Origin: Candidatus Binatia bacterium
GTDB lineage: Bacteria; Desulfobacterota; Binatia; UBA9968
Assembly: GCA_041483675.1 (NCBI GenBank)
Contig: JBGPGE010000030.1
Coordinates: 1 to 32,000, forward strand
DNA length: 32,000 nt
Reading direction: 5' to 3'
Shown: one piece after another, positions 1 to 14,347 of the stretch
Position numbering within the stretch: the first letter of the stretch is position 1
Layout of the letters: the number at the start of each line of letters is the position of its first letter
Program-made: the position numbers and the translations under genes
Notes under the pieces: generated by a model
Databases searched by the model: none
Told to the model about the DNA's origin: nothing
Seen by the model: the letters and a program-made list of their open reading frames with translations, nothing else

Positions 1-89
1 AGCATCACAGCGGCCTCATGCGGTGGGAAGCCGAGATCAAGGAACACATTGTTTGCGCCCTTCACTTGCCGTGCTTGTTTCTTCTTCAT
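1..89 (-). CDS. XRE/HTH antitoxin-like protein, N-terminal 29 codons only (runs off window start)
   Basis: Minus-strand ATG at 89..87 is preceded by GGAGAG. The translation MKKKQARQVKGANNVFLDLGFPPHEAAVM.. resembles N-termini of HigA/XRE-type antitoxins. The ATG overlaps (ATGA) the stop of an upstream toxin-like remnant. It is absent from the ORF track because the window edge truncates it. Confidence 0.4.
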   Translation of the reverse strand, partial: MKKKQARQVKGANNVFLDLGFPPHEAAVM

Positions 90-165
90 GACTGCTCTCC
101 GATTAACCTGTAACGCTGCACTGCCAGCTCAATGTCCGCCCGGGACCCGTCGCCGAATACCGGAA
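86..165 (-). pseudogene. C-terminal remnant of a RelE/HigB(Gp49)-like toxin
   Basis: The frame ending at TGA 88..86 reads ..PVFGDGSRADIELAVQRYRLIGEQS*. An ..IELAxxRY.. tail is typical of HigB/Gp49-type toxins encoded upstream of HTH antitoxins. No N-terminal part or start codon is present. The upstream sequence is replaced by the PIN-fragment block that begins at 160. Confidence 0.3.
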
Positions 166-369
166 TTAAAGCGGGCCGATCTTGGCGAGGTGGCGGACGC
201 GAGGAAGCGAGCGGGCGCGGTCGAAGAACGGCCGGTTGGCGGTGATAAACGGACAATCAAGCTCTACGGCGAGTGCTAGGAAAGAGGCATCGTAGAAGGT
301 AAGCCTCAGATCCCTTCCGAGCCGGGCGGCCCTTTTGCGCAACGGCATGGCCGGCGGGGCAAAGGACAA
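166..369 (-). pseudogene. PIN-domain (VapC) gene fragment, C-terminal ~67 codons
   Basis: The translation ..FAPPAMPLRKRAARLGRDLRLTFYDASFLALAVELDCPFITANRPFFDRARSLPRVRHLAKIGPL* aligns with the C-terminus of the intact PIN protein at 4264..4698. Nucleotide identity is about 88% by eye over 160..365 vs 4260..4465. An in-frame TAA lies immediately upstream (373..375), so the catalytic N-terminal half is missing. Confidence 0.75.
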
Positions 370-469
370 CGTTTACAACAAGGAAGTCATCCCGTAGTGG
401 CAGAGCCGCTTCGGTGGAAAGAGTGTGCTGTGAAAAAAGGGTTATTGAGAGAGGCGTGGAGTCGTCATT

Positions 470-1417
470 TTATGCATCCGGAAAACTGCCGTTTGATGCC
501 GGTTCTCTTCGCGGCGCGACGAGAGAAGCTACGATAGAAAGAGTGAGTATGCCAAGGATCACGGCGAGCGACAAACCAATGGGAATCTTGTAAACAGAGC
601 TGAGTAGCATTTTGATGCCGACAAATCCGAGGATCACGCCGAGCCCGTATCTAAGATAAATAAACAGGTCAACTACCCCAGCCAAAAGAAAGTAGAGCGA
701 CCGAAGGCCCAAAATCGCAAATACGTTTGACGTATAGACGATGAAGGGGTCCTGGCTGACCGCGAAGATGGCCGGAACCGAGTCCACCGCAAAAATCAGG
801 TCCGTCGTCTCAATAACCGACAGGACGACAAAAAGTGGGGTGACGGCAAGTTTGCCGTTCTTCCTCACGAAAAAACGTTTACCATCGTATTCGGTCGCGA
901 CCGGCATGAAGCGGCGCAGCAGCTGGAGTAGAGGATTTTTCTCCGGTGTAACGGTAATTTCCTGTTTCGAGAGCATTTTGATTCCCGTGAAGACTAAAAA
1001 TGCGCCGAAAATGTAAATGATCCAGTGAAACTGCTGCAGGAGCAAAGCGCCGGTCCCAATGAAAATCCCGCGCATAACGAGCGCGCCGAGAATGCCCCAG
1101 AAGAGCACGCGGTGTTGGTACGCCGGCGCCACGGAAAAATACGAGAGGATGATGATGAAGACAAAAATGTTATCGACGCTTAAGGAATATTCGATCAAAT
1201 AGCCGGTCAAAAATTCGAGTCCCTTTTCCGGTCCGAGAAAAATATAGACTCCGGCATTAAATATCAGCCCGAGCGTGACCCAAACTGCGCACCAAGTCGC
1301 GGACTCTTTGGTCGTGGCCGCGTGAGCTTTTCGGTGAAACACGCCCAGATCGAGGGCCAACATGCCGAAGACAAAAATGTTAAACACAACCCAAAGCATT
1401 ATCCGGTCCGTTGCCAT
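470..1417 (-). CDS. TerC family integral membrane protein (paralogue 1)
   Basis: 315 aa and multi-TM. Motifs LALDLGVFHRKAH, EYSLSVDNIFVF, ETTDLIFAVDSVPAIFAV and SNVFAILGLRSLYF are TerC-family hallmarks. ATG at 1417 has a GGAAGGA RBS. Confidence 0.9.
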   Translation of the reverse strand: MATDRIMLWVVFNIFVFGMLALDLGVFHRKAHAATTKESATWCAVWVTLGLIFNAGVYIFLGPEKGLEFLTGYLIEYSLSVDNIFVFIIILSYFSVAPAYQHRVLFWGILGALVMRGIFIGTGALLLQQFHWIIYIFGAFLVFTGIKMLSKQEITVTPEKNPLLQLLRRFMPVATEYDGKRFFVRKNGKLAVTPLFVVLSVIETTDLIFAVDSVPAIFAVSQDPFIVYTSNVFAILGLRSLYFLLAGVVDLFIYLRYGLGVILGFVGIKMLLSSVYKIPIGLSLAVILGILTLSIVASLVAPRREPASNGSFPDA

Positions 1418-1511
1418 AGCTTTTCCTTCCTGTAGTTTCCGTCATGGGTCTCGCAAACACTCATTTGCCGGTTCATAAGGCCGTGGTTGTCATGGTCGCG
1501 GCTCGGCGTTG

Positions 1512-2003
1512 TTACTCCCACTTGCCGGAGAGCGCGAGCATCATCATTGCGCCAGTTGTCGCTGCGACGACTGCGCCGATGACCCAATGGCGGCGTCTGT
1601 TCCGCAATAGTTCGTCGGTCAGTATTCCGCGCAGGGTCGTTTCGGCCTGGCTTTGGAACATGCCTTCCGTAATGGCCACCACCAGGTGTCTGGTGCCGCC
1701 TCCCACGACGTAGGCAACTTCATCTTTCCCGGGCAGCAAACATAGCTTGGGCATCCTAATCCGGTGCCGTAGCGTCAGTTCTTCCACAAGGCCGTAGAGC
1801 CACGGTGCCTCCGATGGGTGAATTTCCCTCGCGCCACGCAGATGTAAAATCACATCGGCAGTTGCCCGCCGGCTCATCCCGTGCAACACCAAGACAAGAA
1901 GGACGGCGATAAGGGCACCGGCTTGATCCTGTAGCCCGATAGTGGCCTTAACGAGGTACAACGCGAAAACCGCGACTAAAAACGCAATCGTCAGGATGTT
2001 CAT
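1512..2003 (-). CDS. HtpX/M48-like small membrane protein lacking the HExxH zinc site (pseudopeptidase?)
   Basis: I chose the internal ATG at 2003 (RBS GGAAGGGAG) rather than the track start at 2174. The N-terminal TM is followed by ..PWLYGLVEELTLRHRIRMPKLCLLPGKDEVAYVVGGGTRHLVVAITEGMF..ETTLRGILTDELLRN. This aligns by eye to the HtpX segment that ends in HEISH, but here the site reads TDELL. The protein ends after one more TM. Confidence 0.55.
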   Translation of the reverse strand: MNILTIAFLVAVFALYLVKATIGLQDQAGALIAVLLVLVLHGMSRRATADVILHLRGAREIHPSEAPWLYGLVEELTLRHRIRMPKLCLLPGKDEVAYVVGGGTRHLVVAITEGMFQSQAETTLRGILTDELLRNRRRHWVIGAVVAATTGAMMMLALSGKWE

Positions 2004-2198
2004 GCGAACTCCCTTCCGGCTCCGAATCAGCGCCCACGGTTCTATCGGTCCAATTTCCGGGTCGGCGCTGGGAGACGCGATAACGAGTCCCGGTCGCGGC
2101 CGTACAGCTGCAGCAGAGGGCAAACTCTGACTAAAGCGATTCGGACGCGTCGAAACTAACGCGGGTCCAAACAATTGGAGGGAAAAGGAGGAGGGCTG

Positions 2199-2519
2199 CT
2201 AAATGCGAAAGACCATCTGAAAGCTATGGAGATCCTGCTGTGAGAAGCCGAAGGGGTTTTTGATCCTTCCGAGAGCAAGAAAATATTCTCGACGGGGCGA
2301 GGCCCCGATCGACATCCTGGCCGACGATCTATCCCTTTGTGGACGATTTCGGACGACTGCTGACCGCGGTGGCGTGACGTAAGGATCGAGATCGTCCGCG
2401 TCGAAGGTGTCTTGCTCGCTGATATCGTTGGGGTTGGCAGCGACGTCGACGGCGTCTCCCAGCATTGCGCTGGCAAGCGGCAGGAAAAGCAGAAAGATAA
2501 GATTAACTCTGGCTCTCAC
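2199..2519 (-). CDS. hypothetical small secreted protein
   Basis: GTG start. The N-terminus RARVNLIFLLFLPLASA|ML looks like a signal peptide and the rest is acidic or low complexity. The RBS is weak and I recognise no homology. Confidence 0.3.
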   Translation of the reverse strand: MRARVNLIFLLFLPLASAMLGDAVDVAANPNDISEQDTFDADDLDPYVTPPRSAVVRNRPQRDRSSARMSIGASPRREYFLALGRIKNPFGFSQQDLHSFQMVFRI

Positions 2520-2608
2520 TGTAAGATCTTTCTACCAAACGCGTGTGATAGGGTCAACACTCGCTGGAAGGAATGGAAGAGTAAAGGAACAACAGACGGC
2601 ATTCTCGC

Positions 2609-2760
2609 AGTTCTTCTGTTCGTTGCTAGTGCTCCACTGTTCTATTGCTCGAATGCTCTAAAAATAAGAAAGCCCGGACACGGGATCAGTAGAACAGTAG
2701 ATCAGTGGACCGCATTGTCGCATTTTCCATTGTTCCAATGTCGAATGCTCCAATGCTCTA
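2609..2760. repeat. hairpin-type repeat whose arms are built from 8-nt periodic units
   Basis: One arm reads ctccactg/ttctattg/ctcgaatg/ctctaaaa and faces cagtagaa/cagtagat/cagtggac. A further block follows: ttccattg/ttccaatg/tcgaatgc/tccaatgc. The last two units lie inside the 91-bp direct repeat. Confidence 0.5.
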
Positions 2761-2833
2761 AATTTTTTGCGGCGCAAAAAATTTGGTGGTCCCAACGGGA
2801 ATCGAACCCGTGTTACCGACGTGAGAGGCCGGT
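2743..2833. repeat. 91-bp direct repeat, left copy (att-like)
   Basis: Base-for-base identical to 4985..5075. The flanking bases differ (c2742/a4984 and c2834/g5076). Confidence 0.95.
2784..2833 (-). pseudogene. tRNA-Glu(CUC) 3' fragment (anticodon loop to CCA, 50 nt)
   Basis: Identical to the 3' 50 nt of the intact tRNA-Glu at 5026..5100. The 5' half is absent and the sequence diverges after 2833. Confidence 0.9.
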
Positions 2834-2944
2834 CTGTCACTTGTTGGATAACGGATGGCGGCTAAGCTGCGGCCGCGCGTGATGCTACCATGCCTTGTGT
2901 CGAGCTGAGGCCGCCCGATTGGCTGAAGCCCGCGGCCGGCGGCT

Positions 2945-4021
2945 TCAGCGGCTTGTTGGGCGGCTCATGCGACGACGCTCCGCAAGTACGGATGCTGCCA
3001 CGCCGCCTGCCAGGACCGAGAGTATCAAAGCCAGCAAGTACAAGTTGAAGTGCTTCCCGAGGGCGAGCTTCAGCCATTCGGCAAGCAGCATCTTCACGCC
3101 CACTATCATAAGGACCAGTGCGAGCGAGACCTTCAGGTATCGGAACTTCTTCACCAGGCCGGCCAATGCGAAGTAGAGTGATCGCAGACCGAGAATCGCG
3201 AACACGTTGCTGGTGAACACCAAGAACGGGTCGCTCGTGATGGCGAAGATGGCCGGGATCGAGTCGACAGCAAAGATCAGATCGGTCGTCTCGACCATGA
3301 CGAGCGCCAGCGCCAGAGGCGTGAGGAGCAAGGTACCCGGCTGCGCCTTGTTCACGACCTCATCTGGGACCGTGGGTGCACCCGGGACCTCGCTCTCGTA
3401 CGACGCGGGTGCACCGGCGCGAACGACAAAGTGCTCGCCGTGGAACCTGGCGGTCACCGGGAACAAGCGGCGCGTCAACCGAACGACGATGTTCTTGTTC
3501 GGATCGGTGTGATCCGTCTTGAGAAAGAGCATCTTGATAGCCGTCAGGATCAGGAACACGGCGAAGAGGTACAGAATCCAGTGGAACTCTGCGATCAGCT
3601 TCGCTCCGATACCGATCATCGCACCGCGCAGGAGCAGAGCGCCGAGGATGCCCCAGAACAGCACGCGGTGCTGGTAGAGTGGCGGCACCGCGAAAAAGCC
3701 GAAGATCATCGCGATCACGAAGATGTTGTCCATGCTGAGGGACTTCTCGACGACGTAGCCTGTCAGGTACTTCTCCGTTGCCGTTGCGCCGCCGTTCGTC
3801 AGCCCATCGACCGCGTCCACCGTGGTGCCAAGGCCGAACCACTGGCCGTCGTAGGCGAAGTACACGAATACGGAGAATGACAACCCCATGCCTAGCCACA
3901 CGGCCGACCAAGCGAGCGTCTCCTTAACGCTGACCACATGGGCTTTGCGGTGAAAGACCCCCAGGTCCAATGCCAGCATCAGTAGGACAAACGCTATGAA
4001 TGCTATCCAGACCCACATCAC
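2945..4021 (-). CDS. TerC family integral membrane protein (paralogue 2, with two insertions relative to paralogue 1)
   Basis: 358 aa carrying the same TerC motifs (LALDLGVFHRKAH, EKSLSMDNIFV, ETTDLIFAVDSIPAIFAI, SNVFAILGLRSLYF). The start is GTG 4021 or ATG 4018, with GGAGG upstream. Confidence 0.9.
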   Translation of the reverse strand: MMWVWIAFIAFVLLMLALDLGVFHRKAHVVSVKETLAWSAVWLGMGLSFSVFVYFAYDGQWFGLGTTVDAVDGLTNGGATATEKYLTGYVVEKSLSMDNIFVIAMIFGFFAVPPLYQHRVLFWGILGALLLRGAMIGIGAKLIAEFHWILYLFAVFLILTAIKMLFLKTDHTDPNKNIVVRLTRRLFPVTARFHGEHFVVRAGAPASYESEVPGAPTVPDEVVNKAQPGTLLLTPLALALVMVETTDLIFAVDSIPAIFAITSDPFLVFTSNVFAILGLRSLYFALAGLVKKFRYLKVSLALVLMIVGVKMLLAEWLKLALGKHFNLYLLALILSVLAGGVAASVLAERRRMSRPTSR

Positions 4022-4115
4022 TCGGCGTGTGCCTCCGTCATGGACTTGAGCCGCCTAACTAATAATAGGTGGGCAGGTCAATCTATCTCCATCGACGATT
4101 TCATAATTGCCAAAA

Positions 4116-4144
4116 ATTGTACATTTATTTTCGGCGCCTGCCAA
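4116..4144 (-). promoter_or_regulatory. sigma70-like promoter for TerC paralogue 2
   Basis: The minus strand reads TTGGCA-N17-TACAAT (-35 at 4144..4139, -10 at 4121..4116). This leaves a leader of about 90 nt before the start codon. Confidence 0.4.
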
Positions 4145-4263
4145 CGAAAAACTTGACCCGACGAACACTGCATGATTGTCAGCCTTTGCCAGCTATGCTC
4201 GACCCAAATCGATCCCAAGTTGGCCCGGGCGGGCTGACGAAGCTAGACGTGCTGAGGCCGGAA

Positions 4264-4698
4264 TTAAAGCGGGCCGATCTTGGCGAGGTGGCGAACGCGA
4301 GGAAGCGAGCGAGCACGGTCAAAGAAGGACCGGTCGGCGGTGATAAGCGGGCAGTCAAGCTCTACGGCGAGCGCCAGGAAGGAGGCATCGTAGAAAGTGA
4401 GCCTGAACTCCTTTCCGAGCCGGGCGGCTCTTTTGAGCAACGGCGTGGCCGGCGGAGCGATGGTAAACGGCAAGGCCTCGACATCGGAAAGCGCAGCGTT
4501 CAAGCCGGCGGCGTCAAGGTCGGTCTTTAAGAGCAAGATGTTGCCGACCTCGTACAACAGCAAGGCGGGCACATGGACTTCCAGAGGACGGCGTTCTATG
4601 TCGGTGAGCAGGCGGCGGGCTTCGCTAACGAGTTCTTCGTTTCTGGTCTTGATCCACTTGATCAACACCGAAGTGTCAACGACGATTTTCTGCGCCAT
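4264..4698 (-). CDS. vapC: PIN-domain ribonuclease toxin VapC
   Basis: I used ATG 4698 (MAQKIVVDTSVLIKW..) rather than the track start at 4788. The N-terminal D in VVDTSV, then ..YEVGN.., then ..FYDASFLALA..PLITAD.. match PIN acidic residues. It overlaps the upstream antitoxin by 23 nt. Confidence 0.85.
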   Translation of the reverse strand: MAQKIVVDTSVLIKWIKTRNEELVSEARRLLTDIERRPLEVHVPALLLYEVGNILLLKTDLDAAGLNAALSDVEALPFTIAPPATPLLKRAARLGKEFRLTFYDASFLALAVELDCPLITADRSFFDRARSLPRVRHLAKIGPL

Positions 4699-4939
4699 GT
4701 CGGGTATCCCGGTAGTACCGGATGATGTCGGCCGAGTCCCACTGGCCGACCCAATGCCGCTCAAGCTCGCGCAGCGGGGCAAGCGCACGCTTCCAGGATT
4801 GCAGCCGCGAATTCTTGCCGTTGACGACGGTTCGGAGGGCCGCGCGAATCAACTCGCTGCGGGAGCGGCCCTGGGCATGGGCGGTGCGATCCACCTTTTT
4901 GAGGAATTCATCGGGAAGAGAAATCATCACTTTGGCCAT
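4676..4939 (-). CDS. vapB: ribbon-helix-helix (CopG/VapB-type) antitoxin
   Basis: 87 aa. MAKVMISLPDEFLKKVDRTAHAQGRSRSELIRAALR is a classic RHH N-terminus. A GGAGGT RBS precedes it, and it overlaps vapC. Confidence 0.8.
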   Translation of the reverse strand: MAKVMISLPDEFLKKVDRTAHAQGRSRSELIRAALRTVVNGKNSRLQSWKRALAPLRELERHWVGQWDSADIIRYYRDTRHGAENRR

Positions 4940-4984
4940 TGCAGGTCGACCTCCGAAAAGAGCGCAGCAGCAGAAATCTCGAAA

Positions 4985-5075
4985 GAATGCTCCAATGCTC
5001 TAAATTTTTTGCGGCGCAAAAAATTTGGTGGTCCCAACGGGAATCGAACCCGTGTTACCGACGTGAGAGGCCGGT
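4985..5075. repeat. 91-bp direct repeat, right copy (contains the 3' half of the intact tRNA-Glu)
   Basis: Identical to 2743..2833. It also contains the palindrome ttttttgcggcgcaaaaaa directly 3' of the tRNA. Confidence 0.95.
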
Positions 5076-5100
5076 GTCCTAACCGCTAGACGATGGGACC
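5026..5100 (-). tRNA. tRNA-Glu (anticodon CUC), CCA encoded
   Basis: The reverse complement is GGTCCCATCGTCTAGCGGTTAGGACACCGGCCTCTCACGTCGGTAACACGGGTTCGATTCCCGTTGGGACCACCA. It folds by hand into a cloverleaf with a 7-bp acceptor stem, anticodon loop CT-CTC-AC and T-loop TTCGATT. Confidence 0.9.
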
Positions 5101-5102
5101 TA

Positions 5103-5178
5103 TGGCTGAGGAGGTAGGACTCGAACCTACAATCGCCTGATCCAGAGTCAGGTGGCTTACCAGTTAGCCGACTCCTCA
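5103..5178 (-). tRNA. tRNA-Gln (anticodon CUG), CCA encoded
   Basis: The reverse complement is TGAGGAGTCGGCTAACTGGTAAGCCACCTGACTCTGGATCAGGCGATTGTAGGTTCGAGTCCTACCTCCTCAGCCA. It has the U1:A72 pair typical of tRNA-Gln, anticodon loop CT-CTG-GA, and is 76 nt long. Confidence 0.9.
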
Positions 5179-5191
5179 ATCGCAGTTAATT

Positions 5192-5220
5192 AAATTAAAA
5201 GAATCAGGAGGGAGAGTCAA
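5192..5220 (-). promoter_or_regulatory. sigma70-like promoter of the tRNA-Gln/tRNA-Glu operon
   Basis: The minus strand reads TTGACT-N17-TAATTT. The -10 ends 13 nt before the tRNA-Gln 5' end. Confidence 0.5.
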
Positions 5221-5221
5221 G

Positions 5222-5254
5222 CCGCTTACGGCCCGCTTACGGCCCGCTTACGGT
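5222..5254. repeat. 3 x 11-nt tandem repeat (ccgcttacggc)
   Basis: The units are ccgcttacggc, ccgcttacggc and ccgcttacggt. They lie exactly between the divergent tRNA promoter and ilvC promoter -35 boxes. Confidence 0.8.
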
Positions 5255-5268
5255 CCGGCCTGTTTTGG

Positions 5269-5298
5269 TTGACATAACCGCCCTTCGACGGCTATTCT
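5269..5298 (+). promoter_or_regulatory. sigma70-like promoter of ilvC
   Basis: TTGACA-N18-TATTCT lies about 25 nt upstream of the ilvC start. The RBS is GGAGGAG. Confidence 0.5.
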
Positions 5299-5323
5299 TA
5301 AGGTCCACGTTTGGAGGAGTACG

Positions 5324-6340
5324 ATGCAAGTTTATTATGACCGGGATGCGGACCTGAAATATCTCAAAGGCAAGAAGGTGGCGGTGTTGGGCTACGGTAG
5401 CCAGGGCCATGCGCACGCTAACAATCTGAAGGACTCGGGGGTTGAGGTCGCCGTCGGGCTGAAAAAGGGGAGCGCCTCGTGGCCCAAGGCCGAGAAGATG
5501 GGCCTCAAGGTCATGGAGACCGCCGAGGCGGCGAAGTGGGGCGATATCGTAATGATTTTGCTGCCGGACGAGCTCCAAGGCGAGGCTTACGAAAAGGAGA
5601 TTCGTCCGGGGCTGAAAGACGGCAATTACCTCGCCTTCGGCCACGGATTTAACATCCACTTCAAGAAGGTCGTGCCGGACAAAGGGGTCAACGTCTTTAT
5701 GGTCGCGCCCAAGGGGCCGGGCCATCTCGTGCGGAGCGAGTTTGAAAAGGGGCGCGGCGTGCCGTGTCTGCTGGCTGTCCAGCAGGATCCTTCGCGCGAC
5801 ACTAAACAGGTCGGCCTCGCCTATGCGAGCGCGCTGGGTGGCGCGCGCGCCGCGGTGATCGAAACAACTTTTAAGGACGAGACGGAGACCGATCTGTTCG
5901 GCGAGCAGTCGGTGCTCTGCGGCGGCCTTACGTCGCTGATCCAGGCCGGGTACGAAACGCTCGTCGACGCGGGTTATCCCCCGGAGATGGCCTACTTCGA
6001 GTGCGTCCACGAAGTGAAGCTGATCGTCGATCTCATTTATGAAGGCGGTTTGACCAACATGCGCTATTCGATCAGCAACACGGCCGAGTATGGCGATCTC
6101 ACGAGGGGCAAACGAGTGATCGGTCCCGAAGTGCGCCAAGCGATGAAAAAAATCTTGGCCGACATTCAATCCGGAAAATTCGCCGAGGAGTGGATCACGG
6201 AATGCCGCGCCGGCATGCCGCATTTCCGGGAGCTGAGAAAAGAGGCGGCGAATCATCCGCTGGAAAAAGTCGGCGAGCAGTTGCGGTCGATGATGCCGTG
6301 GTTGGGGCAGAACCGGCTGGTGGACAAGAGTAGAAATTAG
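5324..6340 (+). CDS. ilvC: ketol-acid reductoisomerase (class I)
   Basis: 338 aa. [34 protein letters not shown].. is the canonical IlvC N-terminus with its NADPH site. Confidence 0.97.
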
Positions 6341-6353
6341 GGCGACAGTAAGG

Positions 6354-6369
6354 GCGACCGGCCGGTCGC
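6354..6369. repeat. perfect 16-nt GC palindrome after ilvC (possible terminator or REP hairpin)
   Basis: The palindrome is gcgaccggccggtcgc, inside taagggcgaccggccggtcgcgcctaca. No T-tract follows it. The same 'tgtaggggc..gcccctaca'-type motif recurs at 21276..21343. Confidence 0.4.
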
Positions 6370-6399
6370 GCCTACACCGACGCCGCCGGCCTATCTAAA

Positions 6400-7017
6400 A
6401 TGAAGATCGCGAAAGAGGGTTATCCATTTATTCTGCCCGTGGCCGGGTTGGCGCTGCTGGCGTTTCTCGTCGGCTGGGCGTGGATCGGGTGGTGTTTTGC
6501 GCTGATCGCGTTTGCGTTTCTGGGCTTTTTCCGCGATCCTGAACGTATTGTGCCGCAGGGCGAAGGGCTGGTCGTATCGCCGGCGGACGGGAGGGTGATG
6601 GCGACTCGGGATTTGAGAGGCGAAGGGTTGCGAACCAGGGTCAGTATCTTTTTGTCGCCTCTCGATGTCCATATCAACCGCTCGCCGGTCGAAGGAAAGG
6701 TCGAGGAGGTTCGCTATCAGGCGGGCAAATTCTTCGCCGCCTATAAGGAAGCGGCCTCCGAGGCCAACGAGCGCAACGCCGTCACGGTGGTTGACAAGCA
6801 GGGCAGGAGATTCGGAGCGGTGCAGATCGCCGGCGTTGTGGCGCGGCGCATCGTCTGCAAAACTAAGGAAGGGGATTGGCTGGAGCGCGGCCAGAGATTC
6901 GGATTGATCAGGTTTGGCTCCAGGGTTGATTTGTATTTGCCCGACGGAACGCGAGTGGAAGTGGCGGAAGGGCAGCACGTGACGGGCGGCGAGACGATAA
7001 TCGCGAGGATGACATGA
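6400..7017 (+). CDS. psd: phosphatidylserine decarboxylase proenzyme (short, archaetidylserine-decarboxylase-like form)
   Basis: 205 aa with an N-terminal TM. It shows ..LSPLDVHINRSPVEG.. and the self-cleavage-type motif FGSRVDLYLP. Confidence 0.9.
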   Translation: MKIAKEGYPFILPVAGLALLAFLVGWAWIGWCFALIAFAFLGFFRDPERIVPQGEGLVVSPADGRVMATRDLRGEGLRTRVSIFLSPLDVHINRSPVEGKVEEVRYQAGKFFAAYKEAASEANERNAVTVVDKQGRRFGAVQIAGVVARRIVCKTKEGDWLERGQRFGLIRFGSRVDLYLPDGTRVEVAEGQHVTGGETIIARMT

Positions 7018-7868
7018 GCGGACTCAATGAACCGCAAGACGACGGACCGGCGAGGCCGAAGGTCCGGCTGCTGCCGAGGAGAACCGCGCCGCGCGTTCCG
7101 CTCCGGCAGAGAGTGCGCTCGGCCCAGCTCCAGCGGGGCGTCTATCTCATTCCCAGCCTGTTTACGACTGGGAACCTGATCTGCGGCTTTTTCTCCATCA
7201 TCTCGACTTTTAACGGCGCGTACATGCGCGCGGCGGTGTTTATCATCCTGGCTCATCTGATGGACTGCCTGGACGGCTATGTGGCGCGGCTGACCAAGAC
7301 CACGAGCCAGTTCGGCATCGAACTCGATTCTCTGGCGGATCTGGTTTCCTTCGGCGTCGCGCCGGCGATCCTGGCCTATTACTGGGCGCTCGTCCCCTGG
7401 AGCACCTGGGGCTGGATGGCCGCCTGTCTTTTCGTCGTCTGCGGCGCTCTTCGATTGGCCCGCTTCAACGTCCAGGCCCGGACCGTGGAGAAAACTCATT
7501 TCGTCGGCCTTCCCATTCCAGCGGCGGCGGAGATGATCGCGGCGACCGTGGTGATGTATTATTATCTGCACGGCGAGGCGGCGGGCAACAAGCCGCTGAT
7601 TTTGCTGCTGGTCATCTACCTCCTGGCGGGCTTGATGGTGAGCAACATTCAATATTCGAGTTTCAAGCATCTCTCGCTCAAGAAAAGGCATCCGATCTGG
7701 ATCTTGATCTCCGCGATCCTGTCGATCAAGGTGACGATCCTCTATCCGGAGGTCGTGTTTTTTACGGTGTTTGTCCTGTATACTTTATCGGGTCCTCTCT
7801 TATGGTTCCTGAGCGCCTATAAACGGCGGCGGGCGAAGAGAGGGGAACTCGCAGACGCTCTGCCCTAG
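7014..7868 (+). CDS. pssA: CDP-diacylglycerol--serine O-phosphatidyltransferase
   Basis: The CDP-alcohol phosphatidyltransferase motif DCLDGYVARLTKTTSQFGIELDSLADLVSFGVAPA is present. The start overlaps the psd stop (ATGA). Confidence 0.9.
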   Translation: MSGLNEPQDDGPARPKVRLLPRRTAPRVPLRQRVRSAQLQRGVYLIPSLFTTGNLICGFFSIISTFNGAYMRAAVFIILAHLMDCLDGYVARLTKTTSQFGIELDSLADLVSFGVAPAILAYYWALVPWSTWGWMAACLFVVCGALRLARFNVQARTVEKTHFVGLPIPAAAEMIAATVVMYYYLHGEAAGNKPLILLLVIYLLAGLMVSNIQYSSFKHLSLKKRHPIWILISAILSIKVTILYPEVVFFTVFVLYTLSGPLLWFLSAYKRRRAKRGELADALP

Positions 7869-7895
7869 TTCCCGTCTCTCCATGTCGGTCTCACA

Positions 7896-7929
7896 CTCCC
7901 GCGGGCCAGAGTCGCGGGAGTTTTTTTTT
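7896..7929 (+). terminator. Rho-independent terminator (8-bp GC stem, 9-nt loop, T9)
   Basis: The stem is ctcccgcg (7896..7903) paired with cgcgggag (7913..7920), followed by ttttttttt (7921..7929). It lies 28 nt after the pssA stop and 14 nt before the leuA ATG. Confidence 0.85.
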
Positions 7930-7943
7930 ATGGAGGATGAACG

Positions 7944-9512
7944 ATGTCGGAGAAAATTATGAACGATCAGATCGTGAAAATATTCGATACCACGCTCAGG
8001 GACGGCGAGCAGTCTCCCGGGGCGAGCATGAACATGGAAGAAAAGGTGGTGATCGCGCGCCAACTGGAGAAGCTCGGGGTGGACGTGATCGAGGCCGGCT
8101 TTGCCGCGTCGTCGGACGGCGACTTCGAGTCCGTCGAGCGCGTCTCCAAGGATGTCAAGCGACCGCGGGTGCTGAGCCTGGCGCGCGCCCAGGAGGGCGA
8201 TATCAAGCGGGCGTTGAAGGCGGTCGAGCACGCGAAGCATCCGGGGATTCATATCTTCATCGCCACGTCCGATATCCACATGAAGCATAAACTCCGGATG
8301 TCGCGCGACGAGGTGGTGGACGCCGCGGTGTGGGCCGTGAGCTACGCCAAGAAGCATATCGACTATATCGAGTTTTCGGCGGAGGACGCGTCGCGGAGCG
8401 ACTGGGGGTTTCTGGTGAAGGTCTTCGGCGAGGTGATCCGCGCCGGCGCAAGCACGCTTAATGTTCCGGACACGACCGGCTACGCGATCCCCTCGGAGTT
8501 CGGCGCGCTGGTGCGCCACCTGATCGAGCACACCGACGGCGCGGATCGCGTCATCTGGAGCGCGCACTGCCACAACGATCTGGGGCTCGCGACGGCCAAC
8601 TCGCTGGCGGCCGTGGCGAACGGGGCGCGGCAGGTGGAGTGCACGATCAACGGCATCGGCGAACGCGCGGGAAACACTTCGTTGGAAGAAGTCGTGATGG
8701 CGATTAAGACGAGAAAGAATCTTCTCGACGTGGACACCAACGTCGTGACGGAGCAGATCTATCCGACGTCGCGTCTGCTGTCGCAGATCACGGGGATTGC
8801 GATCCCGATCAACAAGCCGATTGTCGGCGACAATGCCTTCGCGCACGAAGCCGGCATCCATCAAGACGGCGTGCTGAAGCATAAGTACACCTACGAGATC
8901 ATGACGCCGGAGTCGATCGGCATTCCCGGCAACCGGCTGGTGATGGGGAAGCACTCCGGCCGCCACGCCTTCGGCGAGCGGTTGAAGGAGTTGGGATTCA
9001 ATCTCGAAAAGGAAGACATGAATCGCGCGTTTCTCCGCTTCAAGGAGCTGGCGGACAAGAAGAAAGAAGTTTACGACGAGGACATCGAGGCGATCGTGGC
9101 GGAGGAGATTCTGAGACTGCCCGGACAACCGGACGCCTTCGAGCTGCTCTATTTGAACGTCAGCTCAAGCTCCAACGCGGTCCCGTCGGCGACGGTGAAG
9201 ATGCGGGTCAACGGCGACGAGCGCACCGAGCCCGCGACGGGCGACGGCGTGGTGGACGCCTGCTACAAGGCGATCACCAAGCTGACCGGCGCGCGCGCCA
9301 ACCTCGTGCGCTACTCGGTCAAGGCGATCAGCGGCGGGACCGATGCCCAGGGAGAGGTCTCCTGTCTGCTCGAGGACGGCGGCATTCGGGTCTCCGGGCA
9401 GGGGTCGCACACCGACATCATCATGGCGAGCGCGCTGGCCTACATCAACGCGCTCAACAAGCTTGAGTATCGCAAGCAGTACCGCCAACTGGTGGAGCGG
9501 GAAGGACCGTAA
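7944..9512 (+). CDS. leuA: 2-isopropylmalate synthase
   Basis: 522 aa. IFDTTLRDGEQSPGASM.., HCHNDLGLATAN.. and a C-terminal LeuA dimerisation/regulatory region are present. The RBS is GGAGGA. Confidence 0.95.
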   Translation: MSEKIMNDQIVKIFDTTLRDGEQSPGASMNMEEKVVIARQLEKLGVDVIEAGFAASSDGDFESVERVSKDVKRPRVLSLARAQEGDIKRALKAVEHAKHPGIHIFIATSDIHMKHKLRMSRDEVVDAAVWAVSYAKKHIDYIEFSAEDASRSDWGFLVKVFGEVIRAGASTLNVPDTTGYAIPSEFGALVRHLIEHTDGADRVIWSAHCHNDLGLATANSLAAVANGARQVECTINGIGERAGNTSLEEVVMAIKTRKNLLDVDTNVVTEQIYPTSRLLSQITGIAIPINKPIVGDNAFAHEAGIHQDGVLKHKYTYEIMTPESIGIPGNRLVMGKHSGRHAFGERLKELGFNLEKEDMNRAFLRFKELADKKKEVYDEDIEAIVAEEILRLPGQPDAFELLYLNVSSSSNAVPSATVKMRVNGDERTEPATGDGVVDACYKAITKLTGARANLVRYSVKAISGGTDAQGEVSCLLEDGGIRVSGQGSHTDIIMASALAYINALNKLEYRKQYRQLVEREGP

Positions 9513-9519
9513 AAAATAG

Positions 9520-9730
9520 TTTTTAGTGTCCCCTTCGGGGATGGTGGAAACCCCTCGCCTTTAGGCGAAGCAAAAGTTCGTCATGCCCGCGGAAGCGGGC
9601 ATCCACGGCGGTGGCGGAGCGGGCCATGAGGCAAAGACTGGATTCCCGCTTGCGCGGGAATGACGGAGTGGGGAGGTAGCCGACTTCCAGTCGACAGTTT
9701 TGGAACCCCTCGGCTTGGAGCCGAGGGTTG
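9520..9730. repeat. cluster of at least 5 GC hairpins (REP-like) in the leuA-leuB spacer
   Basis: One hairpin is tccccttcgggga. Two related ones are tggaaacccctcgcctttaggcgaag and tggaacccctcggcttggagccgaggg. A further motif occurs as an inverted pair: gtcatgcccgc-ggaa-gcgggcatcc (9580..9604) and ggattcccgc-ttgc-gcgggaatgac (9640..9664). Confidence 0.65.
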
Positions 9731-9789
9731 TTCAGTTTTGAGTTGAACTCGAAATCAGAAACCAGAAACGCGGATCGAGGGAGGGATAC

Positions 9790-10878
9790 TTGAATTTCAA
9801 TATTGCAGTTTTGCCGGGGGATGGGATCGGGCCTGAGGTCGTTCGCGAGGGGACGCAGGTCTTAAAGCAGGTGGCGGGGCTTTATCGCTTTCAGGTCGAG
9901 TTGGAAGAGGGGATCGTCGGCGGCGCTTCCATCGACGCTCATGGGAAGCCGCTCACGGAGCCGGTGCTCAAGTTGGCGAAGGAGAGCGACGCGGTGTTGC
10001 TCGGCGCGATGGGCGGCCCCAAGTGGGACGCGCTGGATTATTCCATCCGTCCCGAGCGGGCGCTGCTGGCGCTGCGGCAGGAACTTGGGCTGTTCGCCAA
10101 CCTGCGTCCGGTTAAGCTCTTCTCCGCTCTCGCCTCGGCCTCGACTTTGAGACGCGAGATCGTGGAGGGAACGGATTTGCTGGTGGTGCGGGAGCTGACC
10201 GGCGGCATCTACTTCGGCCAGCCCAAGGGGATTACCAAGCTTCCCGACGGCACCGAGCGCGGCGTCAATACGGAGGTCTACACCACGCCGGAGATCGAGC
10301 GGATCGCCAAAGTCGGCTTCGACGCGGCGAGGCGGCGTCGGAAGAAAGTCACTTCGGTGGACAAGGCTAATGTCCTGGAGGCAACCGAGCTGTGGCGCCG
10401 GGTCGTCACGCGGGTGCACAAGGAGCAGGGCTACACCGATGTCGCGCTCGATCACATGCTGGTGGACAACTGCGCGATGCAGTTGATCCGCGATCCCAAG
10501 CAGTTCGACGTCCTGGTGACGACGAATATGTTCGGCGATATCCTGAGCGACGAGGCGGCGATGCTCACGGGCTCGATCGGCATGCTGCCGTCGGCCAGCC
10601 TCGGCGGAAAAGTCGGGATGTATGAGCCGGTCCACGGCAGCGCGCCGGATATTACCGGAAAGGATTTGGCGAATCCGCTGGCGACGATCCTGAGCATCGC
10701 GCTCATGCTGCGCCATTCCTTGGATCAGGGAAAGGCCGCCGATCGCGTCGAAGCGGCGGTGGAGAAGGTGCTCGACGAGGGCTACCGCACGGCGGATATT
10801 AAATCGGAAGGCTGCAAACTCATAGGCTGCAAGGAGATGGGGCGGCTGGTTCGTGACAAGATAGAAAAGCTCGGCTGA
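9790..10878 (+). CDS. leuB: 3-isopropylmalate dehydrogenase
   Basis: 362 aa with a TTG start after [24 protein letters not shown].., ..[11 protein letters not shown].. and ..[25 protein letters not shown].. are present. Confidence 0.95.
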
Positions 10879-10892
10879 AGAGCCGAATGCAA

Positions 10893-10955
10893 TTTTAGAT
10901 TTTAGATTGCCGATTTCCGATTAATAGAAAATCCAAAATCGAAAATCCAAAATCG
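10893..10955. repeat. AT-rich hairpin with 7-nt periodic arms
   Basis: One arm reads ttttaga/ttttaga/ttgccga/tttccga and faces aaaatcc/aaaatcg/aaaatcc/aaaatcg. It lies between leuB and asd. Confidence 0.55.
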
Positions 10956-10965
10956 GGGAGGGGTT

Positions 10966-11988
<1,023 letters not shown>

Positions 11989-11998
11989 AAAGGTTCTC

Positions 11999-12190
11999 AT
12001 GATGACTGCTTTGCGCAAGGCCGGACGCAAGAACGCTTCACTGTCGGTCAGCCAACGGCGGCGTCCTCGTCCGTCCCGGATCAAGCCGGCCGCCGTTTCT
12101 CCCTCGACTGCGGCCGGACGGCTCGGCCTCGCCCTGGAACTTTCCGACCTCTGTCTTGCCTTGCGCGACGCCGCGCGCCGGAAGCGGTAA
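11999..12190 (+). CDS. small basic protein (63 aa), possible partner of the downstream nucleotidyltransferase
   Basis: Its stop overlaps the next ATG (TAATG at 12188..12192). It has an Arg/Pro-rich N-terminal part and a C-terminal helix GRLGLALELSDLCLALRDAARRKR. The RBS is weak and it may not be translated. Confidence 0.35.
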   Translation: MMTALRKAGRKNASLSVSQRRRPRPSRIKPAAVSPSTAAGRLGLALELSDLCLALRDAARRKR

Positions 12191-12798
12191 TGGAGCCACG
12201 CTTCGTTCCGGCGCTCGCCACGCTGCGGAAGGTCTTCGAAGACGCCTCGCAATCTCTTCAGGTTCCAATCCATTTTGCCGTGATCGGGGGACTGGCGGTA
12301 TCGACGTGGGGAGCGGTGCGAGCGACCCAGGACATCGATCTCCTGGCCGATAGTGACCCGAGTCCCCTAAGTGACAGGCAATTTCGTGTTCGCTTGCAAA
12401 AGCACTTGGAAGAAGAGGGGTGCGTGGTGGAGTGGCGGGTAGGTGACCCCGACGACCCCATTCCTTTGCTCTTGCACATTGAGTTGCCGCGTCCGGCGCG
12501 TGGCATGGGAGTCGATATCCTCTGGGCTAATAATCGCTGGCAGCGAGAGGCGCTCGTTAGGAGCATATCTCTAAAAGTCTCTCGGCTGGAAGTGTCCGTT
12601 CTCCATCCGGAAGACCTGATTCTCATGAAGCTGGAGGCCGGTGGTCCGCAGGACCTGCTGGATGTGGAGAGGTTGCTTGCCAATCCCCCGACGCAACTGA
12701 ACCTCAGGGGTCTCCGAAACAAGGCCGCAACGCTACGCCTGGCCAGGGTATTAAACAATTGCTTGCGTGGCGCCGGGATGGAACCGAAGAAATCGTAA
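12190..12798 (+). CDS. minimal nucleotidyltransferase-fold protein (MNT/DUF6036-like)
   Basis: 202 aa. IGGLAVSTWGAVRATQDIDLL matches the GG..G..R.T.DxD signature of pol-beta-fold NTases. The C-terminal PEDLILMKLEAGGPQDLLDVERLL is as in NTase components of TA-like pairs. The family name comes from memory. Confidence 0.65.
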   Translation: MEPRFVPALATLRKVFEDASQSLQVPIHFAVIGGLAVSTWGAVRATQDIDLLADSDPSPLSDRQFRVRLQKHLEEEGCVVEWRVGDPDDPIPLLLHIELPRPARGMGVDILWANNRWQREALVRSISLKVSRLEVSVLHPEDLILMKLEAGGPQDLLDVERLLANPPTQLNLRGLRNKAATLRLARVLNNCLRGAGMEPKKS

Positions 12799-12862
12799 CC
12801 GCAAAGGCGCCGCCCTGAACGCCGTCCAAATCGCGGAGATTTTGATCCGGGACTATATTTGA
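12799..12862 (+). pseudogene. duplicated asd 3' end, copy 2 (last 20 codons + stop)
   Basis: 56 of 64 nt are identical to asd 11925..11988. All 7 sense-codon differences are synonymous, the 8th changes TAA to TGA, and both copies encode RKGAALNAVQIAEILIRDYI*. It starts right after the NTase stop codon. Confidence 0.85.
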
Positions 12863-12880
12863 AAGAAACCAGATTTACGG

Positions 12881-13090
12881 TCAGGCTCTACGCGAATCTT
12901 TCCGTTTGGCAATCAGTTGCCGTATCTCGGGGAGGAGGTCCCTCGGTACTTCGATGACGGTTTGAGTGGAGTTCTCAAAAGCGGCCTCGTCTTCCGCCAC
13001 TGCTTCTTCTTCGGTCTGCTGCTCGTAGTGGGCGAGTACCTTCCGTACCCTCTCCTGGTTCCAACCTGATGGAAATTTATTCTGTCTCAT
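12881..13090 (-). CDS. small acidic hypothetical protein (69 aa), antitoxin-like
   Basis: I used ATG 13090, because the track start at 13225 would run into asd copy 3. MRQNKFPSGWNQERVRKVLAHYEQQTEEEAVAEDEAAF..VIEVPRDLLPEIRQLI resembles a widespread small-protein family that I cannot name. Confidence 0.5.
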   Translation of the reverse strand: MRQNKFPSGWNQERVRKVLAHYEQQTEEEAVAEDEAAFENSTQTVIEVPRDLLPEIRQLIAKRKDSRRA

Positions 13091-13198
13091 CCAAGGATTT
13101 CGGGATCGGTGTGAATCACGCTTTTTCGGGCGCCCATAAGACCACCTCCGCAAAGGAGGATAGCACCGGTTCCTCTGGAAATCTAATTGAGGCCTTTT

Positions 13199-13280
13199 CT
13201 GGATCATCGCCGACAATCTCCGCAAAGGCGCGGCGCTGAATACCGTCCAGGTCGCGGAGATACTGATCGGGGGTTATCTG
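13199..13280 (+). pseudogene. duplicated asd 3' end, copy 3 (more diverged)
   Basis: About 68 of 82 nt are identical to asd 11906..11987. It encodes [26 protein letters not shown], compared with [26 protein letters not shown] in asd. It then reads on to a TGA at 13317..13319. Confidence 0.75.
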
Positions 13281-13440
13281 TGGGCTGTATCGCGAGCCTC
13301 ACTCCTAGCTGGAGCCTGAACTAGCAAGATTGCAATGTCTGACCCCCAGGCCAAAGTTGCCGTAGTGCATCCCTGTTTTGGCTGGGCAAGCTCAAATAAC
13401 CTGACTCCAAACATGCTGTGCTCCCCTACGCTGCAGAGGA

Positions 13441-14238
13441 TTAGTGCACTTTCGATAGCCGCTCAATAAGCCTCCTATACACGGTCGAAAGTTGTCCATC
13501 CAACTCAAATTGATCGCGTGCGTGGGCCGTTTCGAGAACAAGCCTAATGGAGGTACAGAGTGCGAGGGATTGGGCGCGTGGGTCATTTCGGGGATTCGGA
13601 TGGATAAGGTCCGGTTGATCTCGGAACAGTCCCAGCCCAAAAAACCCGCCGTGGGCCGCGCTTGATAACGTGGCATAGTAACGAGCCATCTCCGGGGGCA
13701 GGAGCTTATCCGCAGCTTCCTGGGGCCGGTGGTAGTACTCGGGCGCATACCAGTAGCCTGATACGCGCTCCTTGAAGATGAAACGTCGCGCTTTCTCCTG
13801 GTCAGATCCGCTCAACCGTGCAATACCGGAGTCGATTTGTCGCCGGCAATCCTTGTGCAATTCATCATTGGCGTCAGTTGAACGGAGCGTCACTTTAAGA
13901 AAAAAGTGTGTGCAACGGAACCCGCGTATTTCGGCTTCTTCGTGGAGCTCGACGATAATGGCCGTGCTCAGCAGTAGGTCTAAGAGCGTGCGCAAGATTG
14001 GCGCAGAACAAGATACCCATCCTGTAGCACACAGCGCTAGAAGCGCCTGATGAAAGGCTATTATGTCGGCCTCGAGACGGTACAACGCGCCACCCGCAAG
14101 GGGATATGGGTGGTTACCGTTGAATTGTTCGACGATCGCAGCGTTGACTGCTACCGCGTATGAGGATGCAGCGTCGTGAAGCCGCACAAGCGCTTCGTCG
14201 ATAAGTGGTTTAGCCCGCTCTATTATCTTCCCGGTCAT
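13441..14238 (-). CDS. hypothetical all-helical protein (265 aa), possibly DUF5677-like
   Basis: ATG 14238 (GAGG 7 nt upstream) is preferred over 14247. The surrounding 13281..14347 is visibly more AT-rich than the rest of the window. The segments ALLALCATGW..APILRTLLDLLL and LSSAAHGG recall DUF5677, from memory. RLVLETAH is an Rx6H string. Confidence 0.55.
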   Translation of the reverse strand: MTGKIIERAKPLIDEALVRLHDAASSYAVAVNAAIVEQFNGNHPYPLAGGALYRLEADIIAFHQALLALCATGWVSCSAPILRTLLDLLLSTAIIVELHEEAEIRGFRCTHFFLKVTLRSTDANDELHKDCRRQIDSGIARLSGSDQEKARRFIFKERVSGYWYAPEYYHRPQEAADKLLPPEMARYYATLSSAAHGGFFGLGLFRDQPDLIHPNPRNDPRAQSLALCTSIRLVLETAHARDQFELDGQLSTVYRRLIERLSKVH

Positions 14239-14347
14239 GCGCCTCATTCATTCGGTAAACTTTGAGACTCTGGCGATTGTCATGCGTCCCTAAGTTGTTG
14301 TCAAGGCAGCTTGGCAACCGCTGTCAGTTTAAGGTAGAAAACAAATC

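Follow-up and report, generated by a model that had tools for sequence, protein, structure and literature searches.

Introduction

In the genomic islands recorded by Islander, a regenerated tRNA gene is paired with its displaced 3' fragment, and the anticodon-centred class is the commonest one, with 2083 of 3919 islands (PMC4383910). Cis-mobilizable elements (CIMEs) are decayed integrative conjugative elements (ICEs) or integrative mobilizable elements (IMEs) that have kept attL and attR and lost their integration and transfer genes (PMC5704250). SALINs (single attC sites lacking integron-integrase) are single cassettes inserted by the integron integrase IntI at a genomic GWT (attG) site, and such cassettes are expressed when they land near a promoter (Loot et al., 10.1101/2022.09.11.507474). 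Here, we analysed a locus of a Candidatus Binatia bacterium (GenBank assembly GCA_041483675.1, contig JBGPGE010000030.1, positions 1 to 32,000 of the forward strand; this stretch of 32,000 nucleotides is called the window). It holds a 2.15-kb segment located between two copies of a 91-nt direct repeat and carrying a TerC/Alx-family gene (TerC2) and a vapBC toxin-antitoxin pair. With slightly better than even confidence, we read this segment as a decayed, CIME-like integrative element in the tRNA-Glu(CUC) gene plus a stray integron cassette.

The locus shares with the tRNA islands an intact tRNA gene, a displaced 3' fragment in direct orientation, a repeat running from the anticodon arm to the 3' end of the gene and an acquired interior. 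It differs from them in that the segment has no integrase and measures only 2.15 kb, in that the identity of the repeats continues for 41 nt past the tRNA, and in that neither an empty site nor a circle was found; because an integrase is absent, the segment would fail the Islander integrase filter. In common with CIMEs, it lacks genes for recombination and transfer, is flanked by att-like repeats at the 3' end of a tRNA gene, and shows signs of successive insertions. CIMEs were, however, defined in Firmicutes beside known ICEs, whereas here neither a partner ICE or IME nor mobilisation is known, and the interior is made of a toxin-antitoxin pair and an integron cassette instead of ICE remnants.

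The comparison with SALINs concerns TerC2: one open reading frame (ORF) with an attC site, G|TT junctions, a GTT in the target, a position just downstream of a resident promoter, and nearby neither intI (among the window ORFs scanned) nor another attC (in the 32 kb). In contrast with the described SALINs, this is a natural case in an uncultured Binatia-type genome, it lies within what we read as the footprint of another mobile element, IntI is a presumed actor, and the attC site has an enlarged loop and a hybrid R' box. As for the vapBC pair, it resembles the type II VapBC modules that stabilise islands and integron arrays by its overlapping ribbon-helix-helix (RHH) and PIN genes in a small, dispensable, repeat-flanked segment; it differs in that upstream sequence shared by two compared homologous copies is missing.

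Results

The 91-nt repeat and the tRNA-Glu gene

The repeat search found 2743-2833 and 4985-5075 to be identical at 91 of 91 positions, with flanks that differ immediately beyond both sides. The features concerned are:

4985-5075, minus strand: right repeat copy, attL-like; nt 26-75 of tRNA-Glu within the intact gene, plus a 41-nt trailer with a palindromic hairpin
2743-2833, minus strand: left repeat copy, attR-like; displaced tRNA-Glu 3' fragment plus the identical 41-nt trailer, then native flank
5026-5100, minus strand: intact tRNA-Glu(CUC) with encoded CCA (ARAGORN and Rfam, 65.2 bits)

The part of tRNA-Glu that is repeated, nt 26-75, comprises the anticodon arm, the variable region, the T arm, the 3' acceptor strand and the encoded CCA. 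The repeat thus starts directly 5' of the anticodon stem, which is class A in Islander terms. The left fragment has the same orientation as the intact tRNA-Glu, and no tRNA was called at the left copy. Beyond the tRNA, the 41-nt trailer contains the palindrome or hairpin TTTTTTGCGCCGCAAAAAA and a tandem 8-mer (AATGCTC C AATGCTC); it occurs twice in the window with 3 mismatches tolerated, and none of 100 shuffles matched. The preliminary description, drawn from the sequence of the window, had reported a perfect 91-bp repeat diverging immediately outside, with the right copy in an intact tRNA-Glu(CUC) and the left copy being a 50-nt 3' fragment followed by the 41-nt trailer. Both points hold, the first being reproduced for both copies by a second contig and the second by ARAGORN, Rfam and the repeat search.

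This second contig (L086, from JGI) is 99.92% identical to the window across 1686-14939 and contains both repeat copies; none of its 11 differences falls within 2743-5075. From another sample, the short contig L087 matches 4442-5351 with 100% identity and covers the right junction. The window's own contig also spans both copies, with unique sequence on either side of each junction. Seven of the 11 differences of L086 cluster in about 100 nt of pssA (window 7602-7697), which suggests a small recombination tract there.

A 17-nt motif at 2646-2662, TGCTCGAATGCTCTAAA, located 100 nt from the left repeat, matches the trailer start at 16 of 17 positions; this score was reached by 1 of 1000 shuffles, and no further similarity was seen. 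A third, decayed copy of the repeat in the left flank was considered and rejected, since beyond this motif 982 of 1000 shuffles score equally well.

Layout of the segment

The segment between the repeats contains three genes, TerC2, vapC and vapB, all on the minus strand. Counted from the right repeat, the order is vapB, vapC, a 202-nt spacer, TerC2, 111 nt and the tRNA fragment. Only about 400 nt of the whole segment are non-coding, so there is no room for a hidden recombinase. The absence of any recombinase from the segment, already noted in the preliminary description, is thereby borne out, the only genes being those for the TerC, PIN and RHH proteins. No integrase was found among the larger window ORFs scanned either; those elsewhere in the window have housekeeping roles and include ruvA, ruvB, yebC, lpxC, a histidine kinase, an MFS transporter and others.

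TerC2 as a probable integron-type gene cassette

TerC2 is, with high probability, an integron-type gene cassette. The features on which this assignment bears are:

2945-4021, minus strand: TerC2 ORF, TerC/Alx family (TIGR03718, 381.7 bits, cut-off 246.4); its 3' end runs into the attC R'' box
2852-4058, minus strand: predicted TerC2 gene cassette, with G|TT junctions at 4059|4058 and 2852|2851
2850-2961, minus strand: attC-like site; R'' GCCCAAC, L''/L' stem with one unpaired base, loop enlarged by 56 nt, hybrid R' GTT|ATCC
2834-2851, minus strand: 18 nt, TTATCCAACAAGTGACAG, separating the cassette junction from the tRNA fragment and presumed to be the 3' half of the GWT target
4116-4144, minus strand: promoter-like site TTGGCA-17-TACAAT (10 of 12 matches) in the 202-nt spacer, which has 50% GC

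TerC2 has thousands of close homologues, the best 120 of them with 84-92% protein identity, in metagenome-assembled genomes named as Polaromonas, Gemmatimonadaceae, Chloroflexota, Geobacteraceae and Nitrospirota. Three long contigs with such homologues have wholly different neighbouring genes, and their DNA identity of about 87% is limited to the gene. When 80 metagenome loci were compared, the homology to the window started repeatedly at 4059/4060 and ended at 2932, with sharp ends in dozens of loci. These recurrent sharp ends are explained by a block that is bounded by a G|TT junction and an attC site. The block opens with G|TTAGGCGGC and closes with ...GCCGCCTAAC AAGCCGATGAAGCTG ... CAGCTTATCGG ... 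GTTAGGCGGC, and its end is organised as an attC: the boxes are R'' (RYYYAAC), L'', L' and R' (GTTRRRY), and one base of the L stem is unpaired. The flanks at the TerC cassette loci show G|TTAGGC... together with R''-L''-L'-R' hairpins.

In an alignment of 16 TerC-cassette attC sites, 90.6% of the cells pair, against 29-44% with the partners slid, and four base pairs have changed on both sides. A covariance model built from these 16 sites placed a site right behind TerC in 26 loci; in at least 15 loci it found more sites on the same strand, which form arrays (for example, seven sites in L090 and four in L098). The TerC cassette stands in attC arrays in L089, L090, L092, L094, L098, L107, L109, L122, L131 and L138.

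The best match of the model in the 32-kb window runs from 2957 to 2850 on the minus strand (29.4 bits, E 5.6e-5). It has a 56-nt loop insertion, ends with ...CCGTT and keeps the L stem with one mismatch; its L' sequence, GCAGCTTAGCC, is identical to that of L131. No other attC in the window was significant with this model, except the same site on the opposite strand. Past the G|TT junction, the window has ATCCAAC where AGGCGGC is usual, and such a hybrid R' is expected where a cassette is joined to non-attC sequence. When the outer flanks are joined, they reconstruct a target ...CCTATTATTAG|TTATCCAACAAGTGACAG (...ATTAG|TTATCC) that contains a GWT motif and therefore fits the attG consensus and the SALIN concept (10.1101/2022.09.11.507474). 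Insertion by IntI-type recombination at a GWT site is, on the features of these junctions, the most likely origin of the cassette at this place.

The 56 additional loop nucleotides include an inverted copy of the R''-L'' arm of the site itself, forming a near-perfect 55-nt hairpin at 2910-2964, where the attC model matches the plus strand with 19.8 bits. From its sequence, this looks like an internal hairpin-extension duplication or the remnant of a second attC.

The TerC cassette shares 85-94% DNA identity with copies in attC arrays of many metagenomes, and the copies listed singly stand at 84-92%. Its GC content is 58-63% everywhere, while the host DNA ranges from 40-46% (L091) to 66-72% (L082 and L098). 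The synonymous divergence (dS) of TerC2 from copies in other contexts is 0.18-0.45. For the core gene ilvC, dS is 0.97 with the closest available genome and about 2 or saturated with three other genomes compared. Given this low dS of TerC2 relative to ilvC, the cassette has by this measure moved between lineages recently. On plasmids, TerC had distant similarities at best (72-74%, covering 40% of the query), so no known plasmid carries the cassette. The related TerC-cassette loci yielded no intI in a crude search for tyrosine-recombinase motifs.

Three observations concern single loci. In L091, a TerC cassette of about 90% DNA identity (1654-2818) is also alone and has a hybrid R' (GTTAG|ATTT); the ORF upstream of this TerC was looked at as a candidate integrase and, judged by eye, is unlike one. 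In L107, a tRNA-Glu call adjoining TerC was discarded as a false positive, being inside a coding region.

We found also that TerC2 and its paralogue in the left flank (TerC1, 432.8 bits with TIGR03718, cut-off 246.4) both score as Alx-type metal-homeostasis proteins. Tellurite resistance, which the preliminary description had suggested, was therefore not retained, the word being only the historical name of the family. The TerC/Alx family models carry the name 'R_switched'. No riboswitch or other Rfam element was detected upstream of either TerC gene, and yybP-ykoY (Mn) gave no match in 1-6000 at E<=1. The promoter-like site at 4116-4144 sits 57 nt upstream of the cassette junction and, by its sequence and position, probably drives TerC2. 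Among the titles and abstracts of the paper library searched, none points to TerC as an integron cassette, and no paper there joins Binatia with integrons.

The vapBC module

4676-4939, minus strand: vapB-like antitoxin, RHH (RHH_1, E 4e-9); identical protein on L086 and L087
4264-4701, minus strand: vapC-like PIN toxin, vapC2 (PIN, E 2e-17)
4262-4985, minus strand: vapBC DNA homology to copies in unrelated contexts, 81-84% identity

The two genes overlap by 26 nt, and their NCBIfam VapC and VapB matches fall under the cut-offs of these models. VapC2 has 452 homologues at E<=1e-20, and the best 120 listed are 70-88% identical. The DNA homology of vapBC extends from the inner edge of the right repeat to 2 nt past the vapC stop codon. 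The upstream sequence common to the vapBC copies of L168 and L172, TATATAAAAAGTATTGC, is replaced in the window by the trailer. Elsewhere, the copies occupy chromosomal places unrelated to this one, and the DNA retrieved around them contains no tRNA gene; the dS of vapC2 with them is 0.55-0.62. Since the synonymous divergence of the segment genes from copies in unrelated contexts is far below that of ilvC, the interior of the segment is, on this comparison, acquired DNA.

By the boundaries of its homology, vapBC is a module separate from TerC2. The single "TerC + vapBC unit" of the preliminary description had thus to be divided, as TerC2, a cassette, has its own attC and G|TT junctions, and the homology of the separate vapBC module stops at the edge of the repeat. 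Neither does TerC appear as the sole cargo of a tRNA-targeting element, since the cassette most likely came by IntI-type recombination.

An assignment of vapBC itself as an integron cassette was rejected, with no adjoining attC match and no direct repeats around the L168 or L172 homologues. Two further observations were made in L168: an attC-like match at 9578-9636 (minus strand, 34.3 bits) stands beside a 230-aa gene, about 1.1 kb downstream of the vapBC homologue, and a 42-nt direct repeat (81%; 8493-8534 and 9457-9498) lies around a 222-aa ORF.

Relatives and the surrounding DNA

Synteny was examined at ilvC, for which 80 loci were compared; for the 14 closest Binatia relatives, 1.2-10 kb of DNA upstream of ilvC were covered. 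All 14 keep ilvC, psd, pssA, leuA and the following genes. The window is collinear with them from ilvC onwards and non-syntenic over 1-5311, with the break at the tRNA-Gln/ilvC start. The DNA upstream of ilvC differs among the three relatives examined for it. The trailer/tRNA junction had no exact match in the metagenome and viral contigs, and the 50-nt tRNA half had none in the viral contigs. Searches with exact proteins returned no record for TerC2, VapC2 and orf106; for VapB2, TerC1 and orf163, they returned only contigs of the same strain, collinear with the window. The features on both sides of the segment are:

164-371, minus strand: truncated vapC, 3' half only, 208 nt; 87% DNA identity to vapC2
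470-2519, minus strand: left-flank cluster with orf106 (2199-2519), an apparently truncated HtpX-like gene (1512-2003) and TerC1 (470-1417)
5103-5178, minus strand: tRNA-Gln(CUG), immediately upstream of tRNA-Glu (ARAGORN and Rfam)

The truncated vapC is directly downstream of TerC1. TerC1 is of the Alx type and has about 47% amino acid identity to members of the TerC2 cassette family. The cluster of orf106, the HtpX-like gene and TerC1 is preserved in a distant relative (L085), where the upstream neighbour differs and no tRNA is present; the dS between TerC1 and its L085 homologue is 1.26. The match of the 163-aa protein of 1512-2003 to HtpX (M48) models is confined to their N-terminal half and stays far under the cut-offs; on this pattern, the protein appears to be a truncated protease homologue. 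As a native paralogue of TerC2 and a truncated vapC lie just to the left of the segment, the locus has a longer insertion history. At the window edge, an ORF (1-83, minus strand) starting with MKKKQARQVKGANNVFLDLGFPPHEAAV has some resemblance to XRE/HigA-type antitoxins; Pfam gave no match. On the other side, an 11-mer, GCCCGCTTACG, is present in three tandem copies at about 5221-5253, between tRNA-Gln and a promoter-like site of ilvC (5269-5298).

Repeats of the asd 3' end in the same window

Two further copies of the final ~80 nt of asd (11903-11982) are present, one at 12799-12864 (about 87%) and one at 13198-13282 (85%). Copies 1 and 2 bracket a 63-aa ORF and an AbiEii/DUF6036 nucleotidyltransferase toxin (11999-12798), and copies 2 and 3 bracket a 114-aa minus-strand ORF (12881-13225) with no Pfam match. 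No integrase lies between these repeats. All three asd copies are also present in the closest relative (L001); in seven other Binatia relatives the site is empty, with a single copy. Over the clearly shared parts, the asd repeats have diverged to roughly 85-88%. By the asd case, this lineage does accumulate small modules without integrase, bracketed by duplicated gene 3' ends.

Discussion

A footprint of site-specific integration is the most economical reading of the geometry of the 91-nt repeats, and we hold it mildly probable that an integrase made them. An attP with tRNA nt 26-75 and the 41-nt trailer would have been recombined by a tyrosine integrase with the chromosomal tRNA gene. The copy of the element would now complete the tRNA at 4985-5075, and the displaced chromosomal 3' half would be the one at 2743-2833. 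Such an integrative element would have brought vapBC into tRNA-Glu, and its integrase may since have been lost or may act from elsewhere. An IntI-type enzyme would have placed the promoterless TerC/Alx cassette at a GTT (GWT-type) site in the spacer of the element; either the entry of the vapBC element or the cassette insertion may have come first. TerC2 would then be transcribed from the 4144-to-4116 promoter, and vapBC would penalise the loss of the segment. The 91-bp repeats would still permit excision, by a matching integrase acting in trans or by RecA; the excised chromosome, or empty site, would read GGTTAGGAC + 91 nt + GACATTGG and the circle GTGACAG + 91 nt + TTTCGAGA.

Several points weigh against this reading. 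The preliminary description had recognised in the repeats the standard footprint of site-specific integration at a tRNA 3' end; the geometry fits such a footprint and the interior is acquired, but neither the segment nor the larger window ORFs scanned yielded an integrase in cis, and no empty tRNA-Glu site, attP or circular form was found in the relatives or in the metagenome and viral collections. The window starts 164 nt to the left of the vapC remnant, and an integrase may lie further left. Because the identity runs 41 nt past the tRNA, the donor would have to be a close relative, or the copies would have been homogenised; a truly foreign attP is not expected to share a 41-nt trailer. The right junction cuts into the vapBC upstream sequence shared by L168 and L172, which also fits illegitimate or homologous recombination. 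Near ilvC, tRNA, TerC and vapBC are absent in 14 of 14 relatives in the upstream DNA covered, and all the contigs that carry the locus belong to the same strain. As for the cassette, it may alternatively be the last survivor of a decayed cassette array, in view of the moderate attC match, the hybrid R' and the loop enlarged by 56 nt.

Among the other explanations, the one that survives best, though it is unlikely, takes the left repeat as an internal junction of a larger tandem island, in which all the DNA leftwards from the tRNA would be island and the integrase would be to the left of the window. The non-synteny of 1-5311 with the 14 relatives, next to the collinearity from ilvC onwards, would be expected from such an island, as would the truncated vapC in the left part, the slight resemblance of the ORF at the left window edge to XRE/HigA antitoxins (with no Pfam match) and the different upstream neighbour of the orf106/HtpX-like/TerC1 cluster in L085; tandem arrays at a single tRNA gene are known (PMC4383910, PMC5704250). 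However, the region 1-2742 contains no further tRNA-Glu fragment, just the 17-nt trailer motif, and TerC1 diverges from its L085 homologue as if vertically inherited (dS 1.26).

Less likely again is a Campbell-type single RecA crossover between the chromosome and a circle with the 91-nt stretch, coming for example from a sibling strain with vapBC downstream of tRNA-Glu, without any site-specific recombinase. It would account for a perfect repeat that reaches 41 nt into a locus-specific trailer, as if donor and recipient shared the locus, for the vapBC junction that truncates the upstream sequence common to L168 and L172, and for the lack of an integrase in the window. On the other hand, it needs an ad hoc circle whose join falls precisely on the 5' edge of the anticodon stem, where integrase attP sites typically lie; 91 bp is short for RecA; and asd shows twice a duplication of a gene 3' end, the hallmark of target-restoring elements.

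We consider as improbable, and behind the RecA crossover, an old fixed arrangement in which gene conversion from the tRNA copy, the one under selection, keeps both repeats identical. All available contigs of the strain carry the arrangement, and the analogous asd arrangement is old and shared with another species. The old asd repeats stand at roughly 85-88%, however, so conversion does not homogenise such repeats in this lineage, and the trailer and the displaced fragment are without obvious selection and yet show 0 differences in 91. Of the two alternatives that the preliminary description had drawn from the zero divergence, a recent event or conversion, the first is thus argued for by the diverged asd repeats, from which the perfect tRNA-Glu repeats would be young and not conversion-maintained, and the second is disfavoured by the same comparison. 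Lastly, although the data come from short-read metagenomes and several contigs end close to the repeated vapC sequence, the independent assemblies practically exclude an artefact or chimera of assembly, because L086 spans both copies with the same unique flanks, L087 covers the right junction, the window contig spans both copies, and each junction is flanked by unique sequence on both sides.

A bolder extension of the integrase reading would be that toxin-antitoxin modules without a recombinase are, in this Binatia lineage, minimal integrative elements. An unlinked integrase acting in trans would target the 3' ends of conserved genes such as tRNA-Glu and asd and duplicate 60-90 nt; the tRNA-Glu copy, whose repeats are perfect, would have remained active, and its spacer, with the promoter, would capture and express integron cassettes. 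We regard this proposal as a long shot; if true, it would link two site-specific recombination systems in one 2-kb element.

Returning to the CIME-like element with a stray cassette, the segment combines mobile DNA of kinds that are already known and does not represent a new one. It indicates that what looks like the cargo of one island can have been pieced together by different recombination systems. The tRNA-Glu repeats, which are perfect, and those of asd, which are decayed, make a young and old pair for studying the persistence of integrase-less remnants stabilised by toxin-antitoxin modules. In TerC2, we would have a natural integron cassette outside an integron, beside a promoter, in an uncultured soil phylum, which is the situation predicted by the laboratory work on attG and SALINs, and a TerC/Alx metal-homeostasis cassette of 1.2 kb in circulation among widely differing environmental bacteria.

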